From Fistulifera solaris (lineage: Eukaryota), in the NCBI GenBank assembly GCA_030295235.1, contig AP026125.1, positions 1,302,001 to 1,366,000 of the forward strand: a DNA stretch of 64,000 nt. The letters are read 5' to 3'. The position numbers and the translations under genes were made by a program. This document shows positions 12,674 to 29,156 of this stretch, piece by piece (the first letter of the stretch is position 1; each line of letters opens with the position of its first letter). The notes beneath the pieces were generated by a model. The model saw nothing but the letters and a program-made list of their open reading frames with translations. It was not told the DNA's origin and ran no database searches.

Positions 12674-12960
12674 CGGCAGCATTGTCGCTCGAATGAATGA
12701 ATATTGATTTAAAACTGGAAGTGCAGTCGTGGCGAATTCGGATAACACTTTGGTCTATAGTAAATACATAAGACAACGCTTCGCAAGGCTCTTCGACGTC
12801 AAATAATATAATGGCGTGTAAAGCAAACACTACTAAGGACTATTTCATTGCAATAACGACAATTGGAGCTAAAGAAATTTTGCTGAACGAAGGAAATGTA
12901 GGCAGCATTGTCGCTCGAATGAATATAGATTCATGACTGGAAGTGCAGTCGTGGATAAGC
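12674..12960 (+). repeat. Dispersed hairpin repeat family, degenerate dimer (~225-bp spacing)
   Basis: GGCAGCATTGTCGCTCGAATGAAT...ACTGGAAGTGCAGTCGTGG occurs at ~12675 and 12901. Confidence 0.8.
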
Positions 12961-13232
12961 TACGCAACATTTTCAATGATAGTAAATTCGTTTGTGTTCT
13001 TTTGAGTCAGATGGAAATTCTGTTAGTGCTATCTCGAGCAGTTCGTCGACGCTGTCGAACCTTTTTGTTTTGTTTTTGTTCGTGTGTTGCAACGTTGTCA
13101 CAACGAGCAAGCGCAACAACGCAGTGGCAAGAGTCAATTTCCATGAGCTCACCGCCCAAACAAAAACACCGCTTTTCGTCTTCTTTGCGTAGAAACGTAG
13201 CATCGTCGATCAATACTATCAAGTCGTTTGCA

Positions 13233-14450
13233 ATGGTTCACGACCCTCGAGTTTCGCAAACGCTTGCTCGATTGGGAGGTGTGTACCGTGACCCTTCGCG
13301 CGTTGACCGTGATGCTAGTGCTCTGCTTCGGAGCAGCGTAGGGGCGCATTTACAACCCATTGCTGCTGCTCATTTCGAAGACGACGGAACTGAAGCTACT
13401 GTCCTAGTTTTGCAAGGAACGATCGCTACACATTACCGAGCAAATACATATCATATACTCGTCGACATGTTTCTTGCGCCGGGCTACCCTCGTCGTCCGC
13501 CCATTTGTTTTGTGCGTCTTGCTGAGAATATGTATTTCAAAGAGAATCACATGCACATGGGAACAGACGGAAAAGTTTATCTTCCTTATTTGCATGAATG
13601 GACTAGTCAAACACACAATCTTATCGAGTTGGTCGTCGCTATGAGCTCCGTCTTTTCCGCAGACCCACCCGTTTTTACTCGAGCACCGACGGAACAGCCG
13701 AGACCACCGGATGATCCTCCTCCGCCGTTATTTTCTTCCATCACTTCGACGGTATCGTCGACATCGACTGCTTCTCGGCAGAGCCATGATTATCAATTGC
13801 AACGGATGCAACAAGAGCAAAGAATGCAGGAGCAACTTCTGGTCGAACAGCGATTAGCTGAATTGCGCCTCGCGGAACAGCGTGTAGCGGAAGAGCAGAC
13901 GCGAGAGAGACAACTGCAGGCACAGAGAGAATGGGAAGAGCGGCGAACGCAACAAGTAAGACAGGACGTGGCAAAGAAAATCACCTCTTACATTCAAGAA
14001 TTATCACAACAGTGCCAGCAAGAGTTACAGAATGACTGGAAAGATCAGCAAAATTTGACGTACTCGGCAGAGCACAAGATCAAGCCACAAATCGAACTTT
14101 ATAAAAAGAGTATTGGTGATTTGGAAAAGAGGATCAAGGAGGTGGACCGCAGCATCGGTGATATTCAGGTATGGTTGGAACAGGCCGAAGAGCACAAGGA
14201 CGAAGACGCGCATATTCCGGTGGACGATTCAGTCCAACCTGCCCACCGGCACCATGAACAAATGTTAAACTTATCCGCCGAAAACGCTTCCATTTCAGAC
14301 GCACTCTACTTTTTGGACCGTGCTCTCTATCAAGGCAACCTGACCTTGGATACGCATTTGCGTCACGTAAGGAGGCTGTCGAAGAGGCAATTCCTCGTTC
14401 GTGCGCACTTGCTAAAGATCAGCCAAACTTGCATGGTCGTTTCCCGATGA
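13233..14450 (+). CDS. VPS23: ESCRT-I subunit VPS23/TSG101
   Basis: UEV domain (LQGTIATHYRANTYHI, GYPRRPPICFV, GKVYLPYLHEW), Pro-rich linker, coiled coil and steadiness box (ISDALYFLDRAL...HVRRLSKRQF). Confidence 0.93.
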   Translation: MVHDPRVSQTLARLGGVYRDPSRVDRDASALLRSSVGAHLQPIAAAHFEDDGTEATVLVLQGTIATHYRANTYHILVDMFLAPGYPRRPPICFVRLAENMYFKENHMHMGTDGKVYLPYLHEWTSQTHNLIELVVAMSSVFSADPPVFTRAPTEQPRPPDDPPPPLFSSITSTVSSTSTASRQSHDYQLQRMQQEQRMQEQLLVEQRLAELRLAEQRVAEEQTRERQLQAQREWEERRTQQVRQDVAKKITSYIQELSQQCQQELQNDWKDQQNLTYSAEHKIKPQIELYKKSIGDLEKRIKEVDRSIGDIQVWLEQAEEHKDEDAHIPVDDSVQPAHRHHEQMLNLSAENASISDALYFLDRALYQGNLTLDTHLRHVRRLSKRQFLVRAHLLKISQTCMVVSR

Positions 14451-14638
14451 TAAATGCAAGCTAAGCACAAGCGCGCAGTCGATGAAGCATATATTCCGTA
14501 CTCCGCTTTAATAGTACTCCGTATGATAGAGTAGGAAACACAATTACTAATACTGACTAAACTCTCTAGGCTAATGTAACCCTAACGATTTTCAATGATG
14601 GTGAGAGGATGTAATTCTGCGACATCACAAATTCATCT

Positions 14639-15756
14639 TTAGAGCCAGTCGACGGCATCCAAAAGGAACTCTCCAAATTCAGGATCAGCTTGCAACTCCG
14701 ACAAAACAGTACTTTCCGCCTGGTCGAGACAGGGAAACAAAGTGCTGTCAATGGGATCCAACTTGAGGGTCTCTACGGATGACGGACAAGGATCCGGTTC
14801 AAGATACAAAGACGGGTCGGGGAGAAGAGGTAGCTGAGATGAGCCAGTGATCTTCACTGCTGGAATGGTGATCTTAGTGTTGTGAAAGATGGATGGTATC
14901 CACTTTCAGCAACGACAAAACGAAAGCGTGATCAGCCGTAGATCTGTCCCATTAAGGGGTTGGGTGCAATAGCCGTAGTGACATTTGCTTAGAACAGACG
15001 AACAGATTGAAAGCTTCAATCATACGTGCTGTGGGCTGGAACAGATCTAGGGGAGTGCTCAAGTCCTGTCTTGTTAGGGTGAATGATTCTTGACTAAGCT
15101 TGTCGAGAGATCATCTTAGATGGCTCAAATCCCAGCTCTTCTTCCGCGTCACTGTCTTCATTCTTTACCATAACCTTGTCTGCAAAGGAGAGAAACGTAG
15201 TTGAAGTGGGTGAGGACCGGGGAGTTACCGTCTTGGCTTCCTGGGGAGGAGGAGTCTCCGATCGTGTTGTTCGTAGCAGGACGAGATCTGCTGGTTCCGA
15301 TACGTCATCTCGTCCTTCTTCGAGAGCTTTGATTTTGCTCATGACCGTTTCGTATTTTTCTTTCCACTCTTCTAACTCAGTTTCTAATTCGTTGATGCGG
15401 TCGCGCTGACGTTGGCGACTGGCTGCAGCACTTTCCCTATTGCGCTTGCGTCGCTGTTCCCTTCTCCAAGCAGCGGCTTCTTCCCTTGTCATGGGAATTT
15501 CCGGATTGTACTTCATCTGAGGCTTCTTCTCAGATTGTTTGAGTGCCTTGTCGAGTACTTCTAGCTTGGGCCGCTTCGTGCCATCGTGCGAGCTCGAACA
15601 AGAAGATTCATCACTGCTACTGCTGCTAACGCTACTACGTTGCGTGACAAGAATCTCTCGGCGACGCTTTCGCGCTTCGCTTGGAGAATCATTCAGGAAT
15701 GCAATATCCTGAGCGAAAGAAGGAACGAGAAGGGGAGGGGATACTACAGCCGTCAT
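14639..15756 (-). CDS. bZIP transcription factor, candidate HAC1/XBP1-like. Unspliced ORF ends at 15094; a second coding exon 14859-14639 is reached via a non-canonical intron.
   Basis: Basic region/zipper RREQRRKRNRESAAASRQRQRDRINELETELEEWKEKYE. Removing 14860-15098 gives the in-frame ...MISRQAVKITGSS...EFGEFLLDAVDWL* (292 aa versus 220 aa unspliced). Confidence 0.85.
14860..15098 (-). other. Non-canonical (CT..AG) structured intron, candidate IRE1 substrate
   Basis: Both junctions lie at G|C after position 3 of 7-nt hairpin loops (AAG|CTTA and CAG|CAGT). Internal stems are present. Confidence 0.65.
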
Positions 15757-16139
15757 GGTTGGTTGTGAAATTAAGCAACTATCATGCGTGCCTTGATTGT
15801 GAAGTGAACAGTTCGCATGCAAGAAGTTTGTACGTTTGATGTTTGACGGGCAGTTACGCAGGTCTTGCTTCCCTTGATCGATTTACGCGTCACGAAACGC
15901 GAAAAGAGAAATGTACGGCTGACATTCGTGTTGAATGGAAATCGAATGTATTACCGGGTGCTGATAAGTACTTTCTATGTAATATTAACTAGGAATCCTG
16001 TTTGAATTCAAATTCAAAATTTTAACTTCAACTTTGTTCGAGAGGACAAAAGATCTGATGGACTGATGGAATGATTCAGTCCCTCTACGTCATTTCAGAC
16101 GTACTTACGTCATCATTCTGGTCACGGTTTGGTCACGGA

Positions 16140-24653: not shown

Positions 24654-25345
24654 GATTGCTGTTTTTAGACAACTGGTTGCTCAGACCTAAAAGCGAGTAT
24701 GAATGGTAATTTATAAAGCTCATAAGAATAAATGAAGTGATAAAAAGGCTCATTCTGGTAATTCAACGCTATGAAACCTTCACGATTACAAGTCAAAACA
24801 ACGCATCGAAAGCGTCAAGCCATGCACATCAATCGTGAAATGCTTCAATCGCTGCAACAGCGCCTCCCGCACGCACGAAACAAGTTCACAATTAATCCAA
24901 AAAACTGAATTTACGAAAAACAACGAAACAGGGGGAGAAAATCAACATCTTCATCGAACATACCTTATTACAAGGGAACAGACTGCAGTTATGAGCGTTT
25001 CGATGAAAGGCTGCGGCGGAGGAAGCGATGAACAGCTCTGCGTAGCGGTCGGTACATTTTGTACGCAAAAGTAGCACTGTTGAAGAAATTGGAGGACGAG
25101 AAGGCATCGAAAAAAAGAAGCGGACGACGAGAAGACGGTTCTTCGGATTGGTACACATTATTGACCGGTGTGACAGGAGACAACAGTATGAGTCAGTCAA
25201 GGAGTGCCAGTCCGATTTTCATGCCGTCGCACTTCGCACCTTCGTTGCGAGCGCAGCAACCAGCAATAACGTGATGAAAGCAGCAAACAGCACGATAGAA
25301 AGGCTCATTTACAACAAAGCAATCCATAAAAATTATAACAATAAA

Positions 25346-28300
25346 ATGACTCCAGTAGGAAAGAACACACAAGACATGAAGGAAGACGGCCGAGGCATCC
25401 GATTCGGCGAGGGTGTAGGCTATGACGATGGATACGGTGACAACGATGACGAGTTTGTCTCCGAATTGCCCACTGCGGAGGAAGAAAATGCGGACGAAGA
25501 TGAAGAAATTGATGAAGGTAATGCACGTAGCCATCCCAGTAGTATTATCGGTCGATCGTCGGTAGGTACTCACACGTTGCTCTTCTTCGTTTCCCCGTTC
25601 CGTACATTTTCTCACAGCACTCTGTTCTTCCAGGCGGAGGAAGGAGGAGAAAATACAGATCCGTTCAAAGGACGGTCTTCGGGTTCTGGACTTGTCAACA
25701 CGAGAATTGCTGATCGAGAATCGGATTATCAGCGACGTAGACACGATAGGGTACTTCGTGAAGAAGGTGTTTCGTTCAAGGATGCGATGAAACAGGCGAA
25801 TATGGAGAAAGAAGAAGATGAACTACATCGAGATTTAGCCAAGCTGCAAAAAGAGGCTGCGGAAGCTGCGGATATGGCAGACGACGGCGGCGATAATGGT
25901 TCTCGAAGACGAAAGAGACGATGGGATGCCACGGGGGCAGATCCTACTCCCGACAATAAGGAGGATTCGGCACTTATTTCGGATAATGAATCAATTGTGT
26001 CTTCGCAAAACAAATGGGATGTAGACCCTTCCGCAGAGCGATCGTCAAATCGTCGAAAGAAACGATGGGATGAGACTCCTGTTATTGGTGCTTCTGGTGT
26101 AGCGGCGACACCGGTGGTTACATCAGGTGCATCGAAATGGGATCAGACCCCGCTTGTTGCGTCCGGGGCGCAAGTTGGTGCCACTCCTGTTGTCGGCGCC
26201 TCTGCGGGTCGAAATCGATGGGACGCGACACCGCTCACAACGACAACTACGACGTCTGGGGTCCCACAAACCCCATCCGGTGGACTCGTCTCGAAGGCAG
26301 CGGCGTTGCAGCAAGAAATGGAATCGAGGAACCGACCGTGGACTGATACGGCATTGGATGCTATTTTGCCTTCGGAAGGGTATACTATATTGCGCCCACC
26401 AGCTAATTACATTCCTCTTCGGACACCGGGCCGTAAATTGCTAGCGACACCCACACCTCTTTCCATGACACCGGCTGGCTTTCAGATGGAAATCCCTATC
26501 GAACAGCGGGCGGATGCATCGATTCAGGAAATTCGTGCCGCCTATGGTGTACCTATCGGTCCTGAAAACGATCAGTCGGGGCTTCCTTCTTCCTTGCCTA
26601 ACATCAAACCCGAAGATATGCAATACTTTGGGCGTCTTCTTGAAGATGCCGACGAAGACAAATTATCTAAGGATGAGCTGAAGGAGCGCCAGATTATGGC
26701 CTTGCTGCTGAAGATCAAAAGCGGCACCCCACCGCAACGCAAGACTGCAATGCGACAAATCACCGATCGGGCTCGATTTTTCGGTGCCGGTCCACTTTTC
26801 AATCAGATATTGCCACTTCTCATGAGTCCTTCTCTGGAAGATCAAGAGCGACATCTACTCGTCAAAGTGATTGATCGGGTTCTCTACAAATTGGACGATC
26901 TCGTGCGTCCATTTGTTCATCGCATTTTGGCTGTTATCGAACCTCTTCTAATTGACGAGGACTATTACGCTCGAGTAGAAGGAAGAGAGATCATCAGCAA
27001 TCTGGCCAAGGCCGCGGGGCTCCCAACGATGATTGCAACTATGCGCCCCGACATTGACAGCCCCGATGAGTATGTTCGAAACACTACTTCGAGAGCGTTT
27101 GCGGTTGTTGCGAGTGCGCTTGGAGTACCCGCTTTGCTTCCCTTTCTAAAAGCCGTTTGTCAATCACGAAAATCCTGGCAAGCTCGCCACACCGGTATTA
27201 AGATCGTGCAACAGATTGCGCTTTTAATGGGCATTGCTGTTCTCCCGTATCTCCGAGAACTTGTTGAAATTGTGAGTCATGGATTGGAGGACGACATGCT
27301 AAAAGTCCGAATCATTACGGCTCTCACCTGCGCAGCCTTGGCCGAAGCGTCTCATCCTTTTGGTGCGGAAAGCTTCGATGTGGCCATCCGTCCCCTTTGG
27401 AAAGGAGCTATGGAGCAGAACGGCAAATCCTTGGCTGCCTTTTTTAAAAGCTATTGGATTCATCATCCCCCCTCATGGAAGAAAATTATGCGAGCCATTA
27501 CACTCGCCTGGTTATGCCGATTCTTCTCCGAGAGTTTCATTCTCCTGACGAAGAAATGAAACGAATTGTTTTAAAAGTTATACAGCAATGTGTTGCAACA
27601 GCTGGTGTCGAGCCCGACTATATCCGTCAAGAAATTCTTCCGGAGTTCTTCAAAACTTTTGGATTCGTCGAATGGCATTGGACCGACGAAACTACAAGCA
27701 AGTAGTCGAAACGACCGAAGAGCTTGCCAATAAAGTTGGGTGCTCTGACATTGTCGTTCGAATCGTTGATGACTTGAAAGATGACTCCGAACCATACCGA
27801 AGAATGGTCATGGAAACGGTTAAAAAAGTAATTGAAAACTTGGGTGCAAGTGATATTGATGAACGTCTGGAAGAAAGATTAATTGACGGAATTCTCTACG
27901 CTTTCCAAGAGCAAGCTGTTGACGCAAGCAACACTGGAGCGAACAGCTTTGGCAGAGAAAGTCAGACTATGTTGGAAGGCTTCGGAACTGTGGTCAATGC
28001 GCTAGGAGAGCGATGCAAGCCTTACTTGAAACAGATTGCAGCTACAATTAAGTGGCGTCTGAACAATAAAGCCGCAACCGTCCGGATGCAAGCGGCCGAT
28101 TTGATAGGCCGCATTGCAGTTGTTATGAAGGCATGCGGAGAAGATCAGCTGATGGGGCATTTAGGAGTTGTTCTCTATGAATACCTGGGCGAAGAGTATC
28201 CAGAAGTTTTGGGATCCATCCTCGGAGCCTTGCGTTCAATCGTGTCATCGATTGGAATGACTAAGATGCAGCCTCCTATTCGAGATCTCTTGCCGCGACT

Positions 28301-29156
28301 CACACCAATTCTTCGCAATCGTCATGAGAAAGTTCAGGAGAATGTCATAGATCTTGTGGGGCGCATAGCCGATAGGGGCGCTGAGTTTGTATCTGCCAAA
28401 GAATGGATGAGAATTTGTTTCGAGTTGCTTGAAATGTTGAAAGCGCAGAAGAAGGCTATTCGCAGAGCAGCTGTGAGTACGTTTGGATTCATTGCCAAGG
28501 CCATCGGACCTCAAGATGTCTTGCATACACTTCTGAACAACCTGAAGGTCCAAGATCGACAGATGCGTGTTTGCACTACTGTAGCAATAGCTATTGTCGC
28601 TGAAACTTGTGGGCCGTTTACAGTTCTTCCTGCTTTGATGAACGAATACAGAGTTCCTGAGCTTAATATTCAAAATGGAGTATTGAAGGCGATGAGTTTT
28701 ATGTTTGAGTACATTGGAGATATGGGCAAGGATTATATCTATGCCGTTTGTCCACTTTTGGAAGATGCCCTAATGGAGCGCGATCCTGTCCATCGACAAA
28801 CTGCTTGTGCGACAGTCAAGCATCTTGCGCTTGGAGTCGCCGGATGTGGGTGCGAAGACGCATTGATCCACCTGCTGAACTTTGTTTGGCCAAACATTTT
28901 CGAGGAAAGTCCGCACGTGATCCAAGCTGTCATGGACGCAATCCAAGGTTTGATGGTTGCCCTTGGACCGAACATAATTCTACAGTACACCATTCAGGGG
29001 CTGTATCACCCGGCACGCAAAGTGCGTGAAGTGTATTGGAGGATCTACAATTCTCTTTACATTTATCATTCCGACGCGCTTGTTCCGGCGTACCCACTGA
29101 TCGAAGATGAGGGGGAAAATACCTACTCTCGTACAGCTCTTGAGCTTTTCATCTAA
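25346..29156 (+). CDS. SF3B1: Splicing factor 3B subunit 1
   Basis: RWDETP/KWDQTP repeats, [35 protein letters not shown] and HEAT repeats to [18 protein letters not shown]. In-frame intron ~25562-25633. Homopolymer frameshifts at ~27440, 27470 and 27655. Confidence 0.98.

Follow-up and report, generated by a model that had tools for sequence, protein, structure and literature searches.

The locus and its two reading frames

We describe a bZIP gene of the diatom Fistulifera solaris whose mRNA loses a 239-nucleotide intron with non-spliceosomal ends, so that the C-terminus of the encoded protein is exchanged. The gene lies in a 64,000-nucleotide stretch of contig AP026125.1 (positions 1,302,001 to 1,366,000 of the forward strand), which we call the window. 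Coordinates are positions in the window, and features of the gene are on its minus strand. In our judgement the gene is very probably the diatom counterpart of HAC1, XBP1 and bZIP60, a bZIP mRNA with a non-spliceosomal intron.

The unspliced open reading frame (ORF) begins with the ATG at 15756, ends in ...KMISRQA and stops at a TAG (15096-15094), giving a protein of 220 amino acids. Another frame, open from 14905, extends as far as a TAA at 14641-14639 and ends in ...EFGEFLLDAVDWL. Joining 15099 to 14859 removes the 239 nucleotides from 15098 to 14860, which start with CT and end with AG, and creates one frame of 292 amino acids that reads ...MISRQA|VKITG... over the joint. Where the unspliced frame stops at once, the spliced one therefore continues into a conserved, acidic-hydrophobic tail of 72 amino acids (...FLLDAV.WL). 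This arrangement was first set out in a preliminary description of the locus, whose letters and minus-strand coordinates, including the ORF stop, the intron length, the CT start and the 292 amino acids, proved exact throughout.

Exon 1 (15099..15756) runs from the ATG to the G at 15099, the first base of an alanine codon that is completed by exon 2; its extent is taken from the reading frames and from RNA contigs that cover 15098-15772. It hosts the bZIP domain (15313..15474, residues 95-148; Pfam PF00170, bZIP_1, E = 2.7e-9), whose basic region, RRKRNRESAAASRQRQRD, is invariant in our alignment A2. The intron (14860..15098, CU...AG in the RNA) is followed by the coding part of exon 2 (14642..14859), which encodes (A)VKITGSS...EFGEFLLDAVDWL, a C-terminus that is made only after splicing, and by the TAA stop of the spliced frame (14639..14641, from the ORF reading). 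A Pfam scan found the bZIP domain alone and placed the 72-residue tail in no family. By eye, no transmembrane segment is apparent in the 220-residue unspliced protein. A scan of 14500-15900 against Rfam returned only three chance-level matches (E 2.4-8), far under the gathering scores.

About 50 combinations of a GT or GC donor with an AG acceptor would also join the two frames, e.g. the pair formed by the 15168 donor and the AG at 14874-14873, which removes 296 nucleotides. Because so many joins are likewise in frame, the open frame alone is no evidence for the junction. The exact join is known to be the one used because RNA contigs and orthologous loci show it.

RNA evidence for the junction

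Four sequencing runs, X1 to X4, contain most of the stretch. They come from one study with unstated growth conditions, and what they offer here is assembled contigs. Three of them (X1, X2 and X3) are RNA-like, with coverage of 14645-15772 and none of the intergenic DNA upstream. Each of these three contains a 57-nucleotide contig that joins 14858 to 15098 and skips 239 nucleotides, with 3 letters ambiguous, at depths of 35.5 (X1), 41 (X2) and 38.3 (X3). Each also contains an unspliced contig of 296 nucleotides (14832-15127) with 0 differences to the window, at depths of 11.1, 8.56 and 18, respectively. The fourth run, X4, is DNA-like: all bins are covered, including the intergenic ones, and the joint is absent.

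The 239-nucleotide skip is the sole joint in the contigs of X1, X2 and X3. Since the 3 junction letters fit either side, the possible cuts include 15099|14859, the junction that had been predicted, and the RNA fixes the cut position only to within 3 nucleotides. Equivalent cuts range from 2 nucleotides upstream to 1 nucleotide downstream of the cut as drawn (in the direction of the mRNA, on the minus strand). The four equivalent introns, read on the mRNA strand, are TT..GC, CT..AG, GC..CA or AG..CC, and none of them is GT-AG, GC-AG or AT-AC.

Two observations that would point to an ordinary intron had been named beforehand. One was a G at intron position +1. This is excluded by the C found there in the unspliced RNA contigs, in a second version of the locus carried by X4, and in 46 of 46 insert-bearing loci (see below). 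The other was use of the upstream GT donor at 15168. No contig of X1 to X3 uses this donor or the one at 15174, and both lack detectable use because the exon contig of X1 is unbroken from 15098 to 15772.

The X4 contig of the second version over 15015-15234 differs from the window at 15050, 15054, 15061, 15077, 15135, 15146 and 15151; none of these 7 differences falls in the 5′ hairpin, and the C at intron +1 is retained. Over the locus as a whole (14400-16100) the variant contigs are about 3-9% divergent (7-18 differences per 202-250 nucleotides), with one 1-nucleotide insertion at 15004. Judged by this divergence, the second version fits a second haplotype or a homeologous chromosome.

Orthologous loci and intron ends

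In order to find the same gene in other organisms, metagenome contigs were scanned with alignment A2. This gave 335 candidate stretches, 157 of them relatives, and the best 80 were used as loci. They were sorted by motif and frame, with an insert sought between ...SR.A G| and |CAGU[GA]AA[GA]AU. An insert is present between the conserved flanks in 45 of the 80 loci, at the same place as in the window, while 21, from many samples, are already joined at that point. Another 11 have the 5′ site alone, owing to a contig end or to a 3′ motif that was not found, and 3 have no site (L014, which ends early, L061 and L065). Two joined/unjoined pairs, L045/L048 and L059/L055, have 100-nucleotide flanks that are 100% identical, so the precise excision occurs at the same place in other taxa too.

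These results bear on whether the joined form could be an artefact of reverse transcription or assembly (e.g. a template switch at the 3-nucleotide repeat or in a structured region), or else a DNA deletion allele. Such an origin would be in keeping with the 3 letters of microhomology at the junction, with the use of contigs instead of raw reads, and with the shared study behind the three runs. It is hard to reconcile with a junction that is the same in three runs, is deeper there than the unjoined path, is absent from the DNA-like X4, and recurs identically in the 21 joined loci and in 11 database proteins of other species, always opening a frame into a conserved C-terminal domain. We consider this explanation exceedingly improbable.

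Adding the window to the 45 orthologues gives 46 insert-bearing loci; the orthologues comprise 29 first-pass and 16 divergent ones, with inserts of 97-787 nucleotides. Once joined, all 29 first-pass loci have an open frame that reaches the FLLDAV.WL motif. The 16 divergent loci give AVKI[TA]G... on joining, followed by an open frame of 65-158 residues, which ends in ...FL.DA..WL in 11 of the 16 and in a shortened ...FLADWL in L063. The unspliced frame of the divergent loci stops 0-1 codon after the alanine in every case (16/16). One clade (L066, L069, L077 and L079) combines short inserts of 97-109 nucleotides with a longer and different C-terminus, ...EALFDI[AI]SD instead of ...FLLDAV.WL.

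The intron begins and ends with CA..AG in 36 loci, with CA..CG in 8, with CA..GG in 1 and with CT..AG in 1, the window itself. At no equivalent cut in any of the 46 loci is GT-AG, GC-AG or AT-AC possible. These ends speak to a second explanation, that of an ordinary spliceosomal intron with odd ends that is partly retained, i.e. alternative splicing or intron retention. The window intron does end in AG, after a CTAAG branch-like motif that most orthologues keep, and one gene model (P0080, described below) reaches the same exon through an upstream acceptor. Yet every locus has C at intron position +1, the last two intron letters are CG or GG instead of AG in 9 loci, canonical ends are unavailable throughout, and the GT donors at 15168 and 15174 go unused in the contigs. 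Furthermore, conservation is limited to the two hairpins described in the next section and does not extend to donor, branch or polypyrimidine elements. A spliceosomal origin is therefore very unlikely in our view.

Hairpins at the two splice sites

The 5′ splice-site hairpin (15082..15115) reads GAUGAU-C-UCU-C-GAC [AAG|CUUA] GUC-A-AGA-AUCAUU, with its loop at 15101-15095 and the cut at 15099/15098. The TAG stop of the unspliced frame (15094..15096) spans the loop and the 3′ arm. This hairpin, with its 7-nucleotide loop AAG|CUUA and with loop and cut as they had been drawn in the preliminary description, is the minimum-energy fold of the local RNA, and in a context of 361 nucleotides the loop is unpaired with a probability of at least 0.96. 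Its energy is ordinary when compared with shuffles (z = -1.05; local hairpins overall range from -1.05 to +0.24), and small hairpins are not told apart from shuffles by energy.

The 3′ splice-site hairpin (14849..14873) reads GAUC-ACCA-UUC [CAG|CAGU] GAA-GAUC, with its loop at 14862-14856 and the cut at 14860/14859. As drawn it can form and has comparative support, but it is not the thermodynamically preferred structure in the window. The preferred local fold there is a 6-bp hairpin, CAGUGA-AGA-UCACUG (14845-14859), which starts at the 3′ cut. This rival stem is not kept in the orthologues, and it might compete with the putative IRE1-type loop in the window species.

Two longer-range pairings were assessed as well. 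The exon-end zipper (TGATCT/AGATCA) of the preliminary description exists as letters and is not significant as a pairing, its -8.6 kcal/mol standing against -5.6 ± 2.4 kcal/mol for shuffles, 29 of 300 of which equal it. In yeast, HAC1 is blocked in translation by pairing between the 5′ untranslated region (UTR) and the intron. We rejected a counterpart in the window, where the best such pairing has -27.2 kcal/mol against -25.1 ± 3.4 kcal/mol for shuffles, 82 of 300 being as good. A translational block of the yeast type is therefore not evident in the window, because the 5′UTR-intron pairing does not rise above chance.

Across the 46 loci the cut falls after position 3 of a 7-nucleotide loop with no fewer than 3 consecutive closing pairs in 43 cases at the 5′ site and 44 at the 3′ site. 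The same loop geometry surrounds 4.2% of 4,686 other GC dinucleotides in these loci, a contrast that is a description and not a probability, because the loci are relatives found through conserved motifs. The conserved pattern of IRE1 loops is CNG|CNGN, with C at -3, G at -1 and G at +3. The 3′ loops follow it in all 46 loci at these three positions (CAGCAGU in 37, CCGCAGU in 8 and CGGCAGU in 1). The 5′ loops are more varied, being CAGCAUA in 18 loci, AUGCAAC in 11 and CAGCACA in 4, besides nine less frequent forms. They retain G|C, and CAGCA is usual; G(-1) and C(+1) are present in 46/46, partly through the way in which sites were found.

Conservation was measured in ungapped windows anchored at the cuts, as mean pairwise identity over 40 loci after the removal of 6 near-duplicates. 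The intronic GUC that closes the 5′ loop (0.95), the intronic UUC that closes the 3′ loop (0.94) and the 3′ loop itself (0.95) are nearly fixed, in contrast to the intron interior, where identity is 0.26-0.27 against a random expectation of 0.26. Within a clade of 10 related loci identity is 0.91-0.99 in the arms and 0.38 in the interior. When whole introns from mixed clades are profiled with MAFFT, identity is low over the first 20 intron bases, which we take to be an artefact of gap placement because the ungapped, cut-anchored windows show conservation. The intronic bulge of the 3′ hairpin, from GAUC to UUC, varies in sequence and from 1 to 5 nucleotides in length, with both helix halves retained. 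In L066, L069 and L079 the 3′ stem is a fully paired helix of 7 bp (AAUCUUU/AAAGAUU).

Another intronic stretch, CC.CUAAGAUC, is nearly invariant in alignments A4 and A6, about 10-20 nucleotides upstream of the 3′ hairpin. The CUAAG within it resembles a branch site, yet the intron is non-spliceosomal; part of the stretch serves as the GAUC stem arm.

Pairing is well retained among the orthologues. In the 5′ hairpin the paired cells amount to 80.7% (alignment A3) and 70.8% (A5), and sliding the partners gives no more than 41%; for the 3′ hairpin the values are 98.3% (A4) and 97.4% (A6), and no more than 58% after sliding. The pair that closes the 5′ loop is G:C in 33 cases, U:A in 2 and G:U in 1, and is unpaired in 3. 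In the 3′ hairpin of L066 and L079 two pairs have changed on both sides (G:C to A:U and C:G to U:A); the changes in the exon arm are synonymous and are matched by those in the intron arm. These double changes were compared with shuffles, which reached the number of changed cells in 0 of 500 cases and that of changed pairs in 8 of 500, and with slid controls, which gave 0-1. The preliminary description had left the conservation of the hairpins to a comparison of orthologues, and both hairpins are indeed retained there, with few covarying events. To judge from these alignments, the hairpin structure is supported mainly by the conservation of the intronic arms and by the loop geometry.

Protein family and gene annotation

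A search with the 220-residue ORF returned 733 proteins at E <= 0.001. The best named match is a 221-residue hypothetical protein of Fistulifera solaris with 92% identity. From this similarity, the window gene and the match are probably the two copies in one genome, or else the match comes from a close relative. Fistulifera solaris is an allodiploid.

Among the 120 matches listed, of the 733, almost every one stops at K-M-[IT]-S-R-[QP]-A or directly behind it, and many continue into S-R-I-I-H, which is what the 3′ arm of the 5′ hairpin encodes. The tail ...GEFLLDAV[DQ]WL is present in 6 of these 120. Five of the six tailed proteins read ...ISR[QP]A|VKI... over the predicted junction (alignment A1). 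The sixth, P0080, is a gene model from a Bacillariaceae metagenome-assembled genome; it reads ITIPAVKIT and reaches the exon through an upstream acceptor.

A wider set of 218 homologues divides into 11 of the spliced type, 161 that end within 2 residues of the site, 34 that continue for up to 45 residues and 12 others. The spliced type reads ...SR[PQ]A|VKI... into the C-terminal domain and includes transcriptome proteins of Helicotheca, Synedropsis and a Durinskia endosymbiont. Genome annotations carry the unspliced type throughout, and spliced-type proteins come from transcriptomes. For example, the models P0002, P0131, P0212 and P0218, from Fistulifera solaris, Chaetoceros tenuissimus, Nitzschia inconspicua and Seminavis robusta, end at the 5′ splice site. 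The conservation is diatom-wide: a profile of the divergent members takes in centrics (Chaetoceros tenuissimus, Chaetoceros sp., Helicotheca and Attheya) as well as pennates (Nitzschia inconspicua, Seminavis robusta and Synedropsis). A search for the 72-residue tail among longer proteins gave 2 matches only, the word-based method being insensitive to so short a query.

Surroundings in the window

Upstream of the gene, about 330-350 nucleotides from the ATG, two TGACGTA(A/G) motifs stand 20 nucleotides apart at 16085-16112 on the minus strand. They have the ACGT core that bZIP proteins bind and may, on this basis, be candidate auto-regulatory sites. Over the whole window TGACGTA is not enriched (10 found, 6.2 ± 2.6 expected).

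The convergent neighbour (12933-14447, plus strand) encodes a Vps23/TSG101-type ESCRT-I protein, with matches to the UEV domain (E = 1.3e-26) and the Vps23 core (E = 6.1e-20). Its poly(A) end lies at 14566 in X1, and the 3′ ends of the two genes are therefore about 100 nucleotides or less apart. Further away, two adjoining ORFs at 25274-29153 on the plus strand have SF3b1 and HEAT-repeat matches and are probably, from these matches, one SF3B1 gene split by a short intron or a frame change.

A predicted IRE1-type splicing event

From the fit of published definitions to the anatomy of this locus, we hold it to be highly probable that both loops are cut by an RNase of the IRE1 type and the exons sealed by a ligase of the tRNA type. 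In this scheme the primary transcript would form a small stem-loop at each of the two exon-intron borders. An endoribonuclease of the IRE1 type would cut each 7-nucleotide loop after the G at position 3 (G|C), and an RNA ligase of the RtcB or Trl1 type would join the exons. The unspliced mRNA would be translated into the 220-residue bZIP protein, with its stop inside the 5′ hairpin. The spliced mRNA would yield the 292-residue protein, which has the same DNA-binding domain followed by the 72-residue tail and is predicted to be a transcription activator. The tail itself probably activates transcription, and stress of the endoplasmic reticulum (ER) would be the expected inducer of splicing.

Could hairpin-loop splicing be real and yet depend on another nuclease, such as a structure-specific RNase or the tRNA-splicing endonuclease, possibly in a constitutive manner? 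In 42 of the 46 loci the 5′ loop lacks the G at +3, and the joined contig is the commoner form in all three runs, both of which such a nuclease would accommodate. The details of the sites argue otherwise. The IRE1 element CUGCAG/CCGCAG in a stem-loop (PMC2952871) is matched by the invariant G|C cut after position 3 of 7-nucleotide loops and by C[A/C/G]G|CAGU as the 3′ loop, and the layout equals the two stem-loops with 7-nucleotide loops of HAC1, XBP1 and bZIP60 (PMC3216516). The host is moreover a bZIP gene with a swapped C-terminus, as in all known IRE1 splicing substrates. We regard another nuclease as unlikely.

A number of points weigh against splicing by IRE1 as proposed here. Neither IRE1 nor an RNA ligase is among the 32 ORFs of the 64-kb window that were scanned against Pfam, a search confined to the window alone. 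The 5′ loop departs from CNG|CNGN, with C(-3) in 27 of 46 loci, G(+3) in 4 of 46, and AAG|CUUA in the window, where the 3′ hairpin as drawn has -1.4 kcal/mol compared with -6.4 kcal/mol for the competing CAGUGA/UCACUG stem. Covariation at the 5′ site is equivocal, as the score in A5 (0.123) is reached by 1 of 500 shuffles and the slid control scores 0.126, and the narrower alignments A3 and A4 show none. Compensatory events are few, and those in the 3′ hairpin, judging from the loci in which they occur, probably come from one clade. The orthologous sites were located by means of conserved motifs, which makes the 46 loci kin and not independent trials. For the source organism the RNA evidence is that of one study. 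The joined form is also deeper than the unjoined; a simple ratio puts it at about 68-83% of the two together, contig depth being a poor measure of such a share. A spliced share of this size would be unusual for unstressed HAC1 or XBP1.

On balance we also favour, with more reserve, a broader proposal, namely that diatoms, and perhaps ochrophytes more widely, run their unfolded protein response (UPR) through an overlooked IRE1-spliced bZIP, the long intron evolving freely between two fixed hairpins. In its length (97-787 nucleotides) this intron contrasts with the short ones found in animals, plants and most fungi. If the proposal is true, the SAR (stramenopiles, alveolates and Rhizaria) supergroup would have its first IRE1 splicing substrate in this gene, which would support an IRE1-bZIP circuit and loop code as old as the last eukaryotic common ancestor. 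A spliced share this high could then mean a constitutively engaged UPR, in a cell that has its plastid inside the ER.

Implications

Much of the photosynthesis in the ocean is the work of diatoms, whose plastids are enclosed by the ER system. In the literature that we searched, no name is given to their transcription factor for ER stress. With a defined gene, its precise junction and the pair of hairpins in hand, the diatom UPR can therefore be tested directly across one junction. Curators of gene models may benefit as well, as those of Fistulifera, Chaetoceros, Nitzschia and Seminavis carry the unspliced protein only and can be corrected. The 46 site variants are a natural series that can show which loop positions are really needed. 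With IRE1 as the nuclease, mRNA splicing of this type would be extended to a fourth major eukaryotic lineage.

There is some applied interest too, because the source is an oil-producing diatom and because the IRE1-bZIP1 pathway of green algae is tied to lipid remodelling (PMC13545648).

Comparison with known systems

The mechanism that we propose is a familiar one; what is new, as far as we have searched, is its presence, conservation and mis-annotation in diatoms. The preliminary description had remarked that no diatom case was known to its author. Our literature search agrees, as it found no report of an IRE1 substrate in a diatom or stramenopile in sources that largely excluded subscription journals and did not extend to supplements. 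Zhang 2016 (PMC4891664) mentions neither diatoms, stramenopiles, algae nor protists, and a 2026 review of non-canonical splicing (PMC13149111) names XBP1, HAC1 and bZIP60 only. A 2022 transcriptome of Phaeodactylum treated with tunicamycin (PMC9585838) never mentions IRE1, splicing or transcription factors.

The closest precedents among algae and heterokonts are of two kinds. In the excerpted text of a 2026 microalgal review, CrIRE1-CrbZIP1 of Chlamydomonas is the sole algal IRE1-bZIP pair named (PMC13545648). Chlamydomonas reinhardtii differs in being a green alga and not a stramenopile, and bZIP1 is likened to the diatom gene here by the description in that review only. Heterokont bZIP proteins, on the other hand, have been grouped by their bZIP domain with fungal HAC1, metazoan OASIS-ATF6 and plant proto-B proteins (Jindrich and Degnan 2016, PMC4736632). 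The diatom protein has a basic region of the NRESAxxSR type; the excerpted text of that study is silent on splicing and IRE1 sites.

HAC1, XBP1 and bZIP60 all have two stem-loops with conserved nucleotides in 7-nucleotide loops, and splicing of HAC1 and XBP1 shifts the frame to a new C-terminus with an activation domain (PMC3216516). The yeast HAC1 system, with Ire1p and Trl1, resembles the diatom gene in being a bZIP mRNA with splice sites in the 7-nucleotide loops of two stem-loops, a long intron and an exchanged C-terminus (PMC3216516). Fungal HAC1 introns range from 19 to almost 850 nucleotides (PMC6222058). The two differ in that the diatom 5′ loop is degenerate, and any sequence similarity shown is that within the bZIP domain.

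Metazoan XBP1 is processed by IRE1alpha and RtcB. The IRE1alpha consensus is CUGCAG with a stem-loop, in which the G is strictly conserved, and the XBP1 sites are CUGCAG and CCGCAG (Oikawa 2010, PMC2952871); the diatom 3′ loops, likewise in a stem-loop, have CCGCAG in 8 loci and CAGCAG in 37. In both systems splicing leads to a longer protein, which in XBP1 gains an activation domain (PMC3216516). The XBP1 intron is 26 nucleotides long (PMC3216516), compared with 97-787 in diatoms, and in diatoms the unspliced protein stops at the splice site instead of continuing into a long alternative tail. XBP1 also has an exon zipper (PMC4687415), whose diatom counterpart is not significant.

Plant bZIP60, the substrate of IRE1A and IRE1B, shares the twin stem-loops with conserved loop nucleotides, and nucleotides are kept where amino acids vary; its spliced form is also represented among the expressed sequence tags in databases (PMC3216516), much as the spliced diatom form is found among transcriptome proteins. 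Its intron is only 20-23 nucleotides long, and its splicing removes a transmembrane domain (PMC3216516), whereas splicing of the diatom gene adds a tail.

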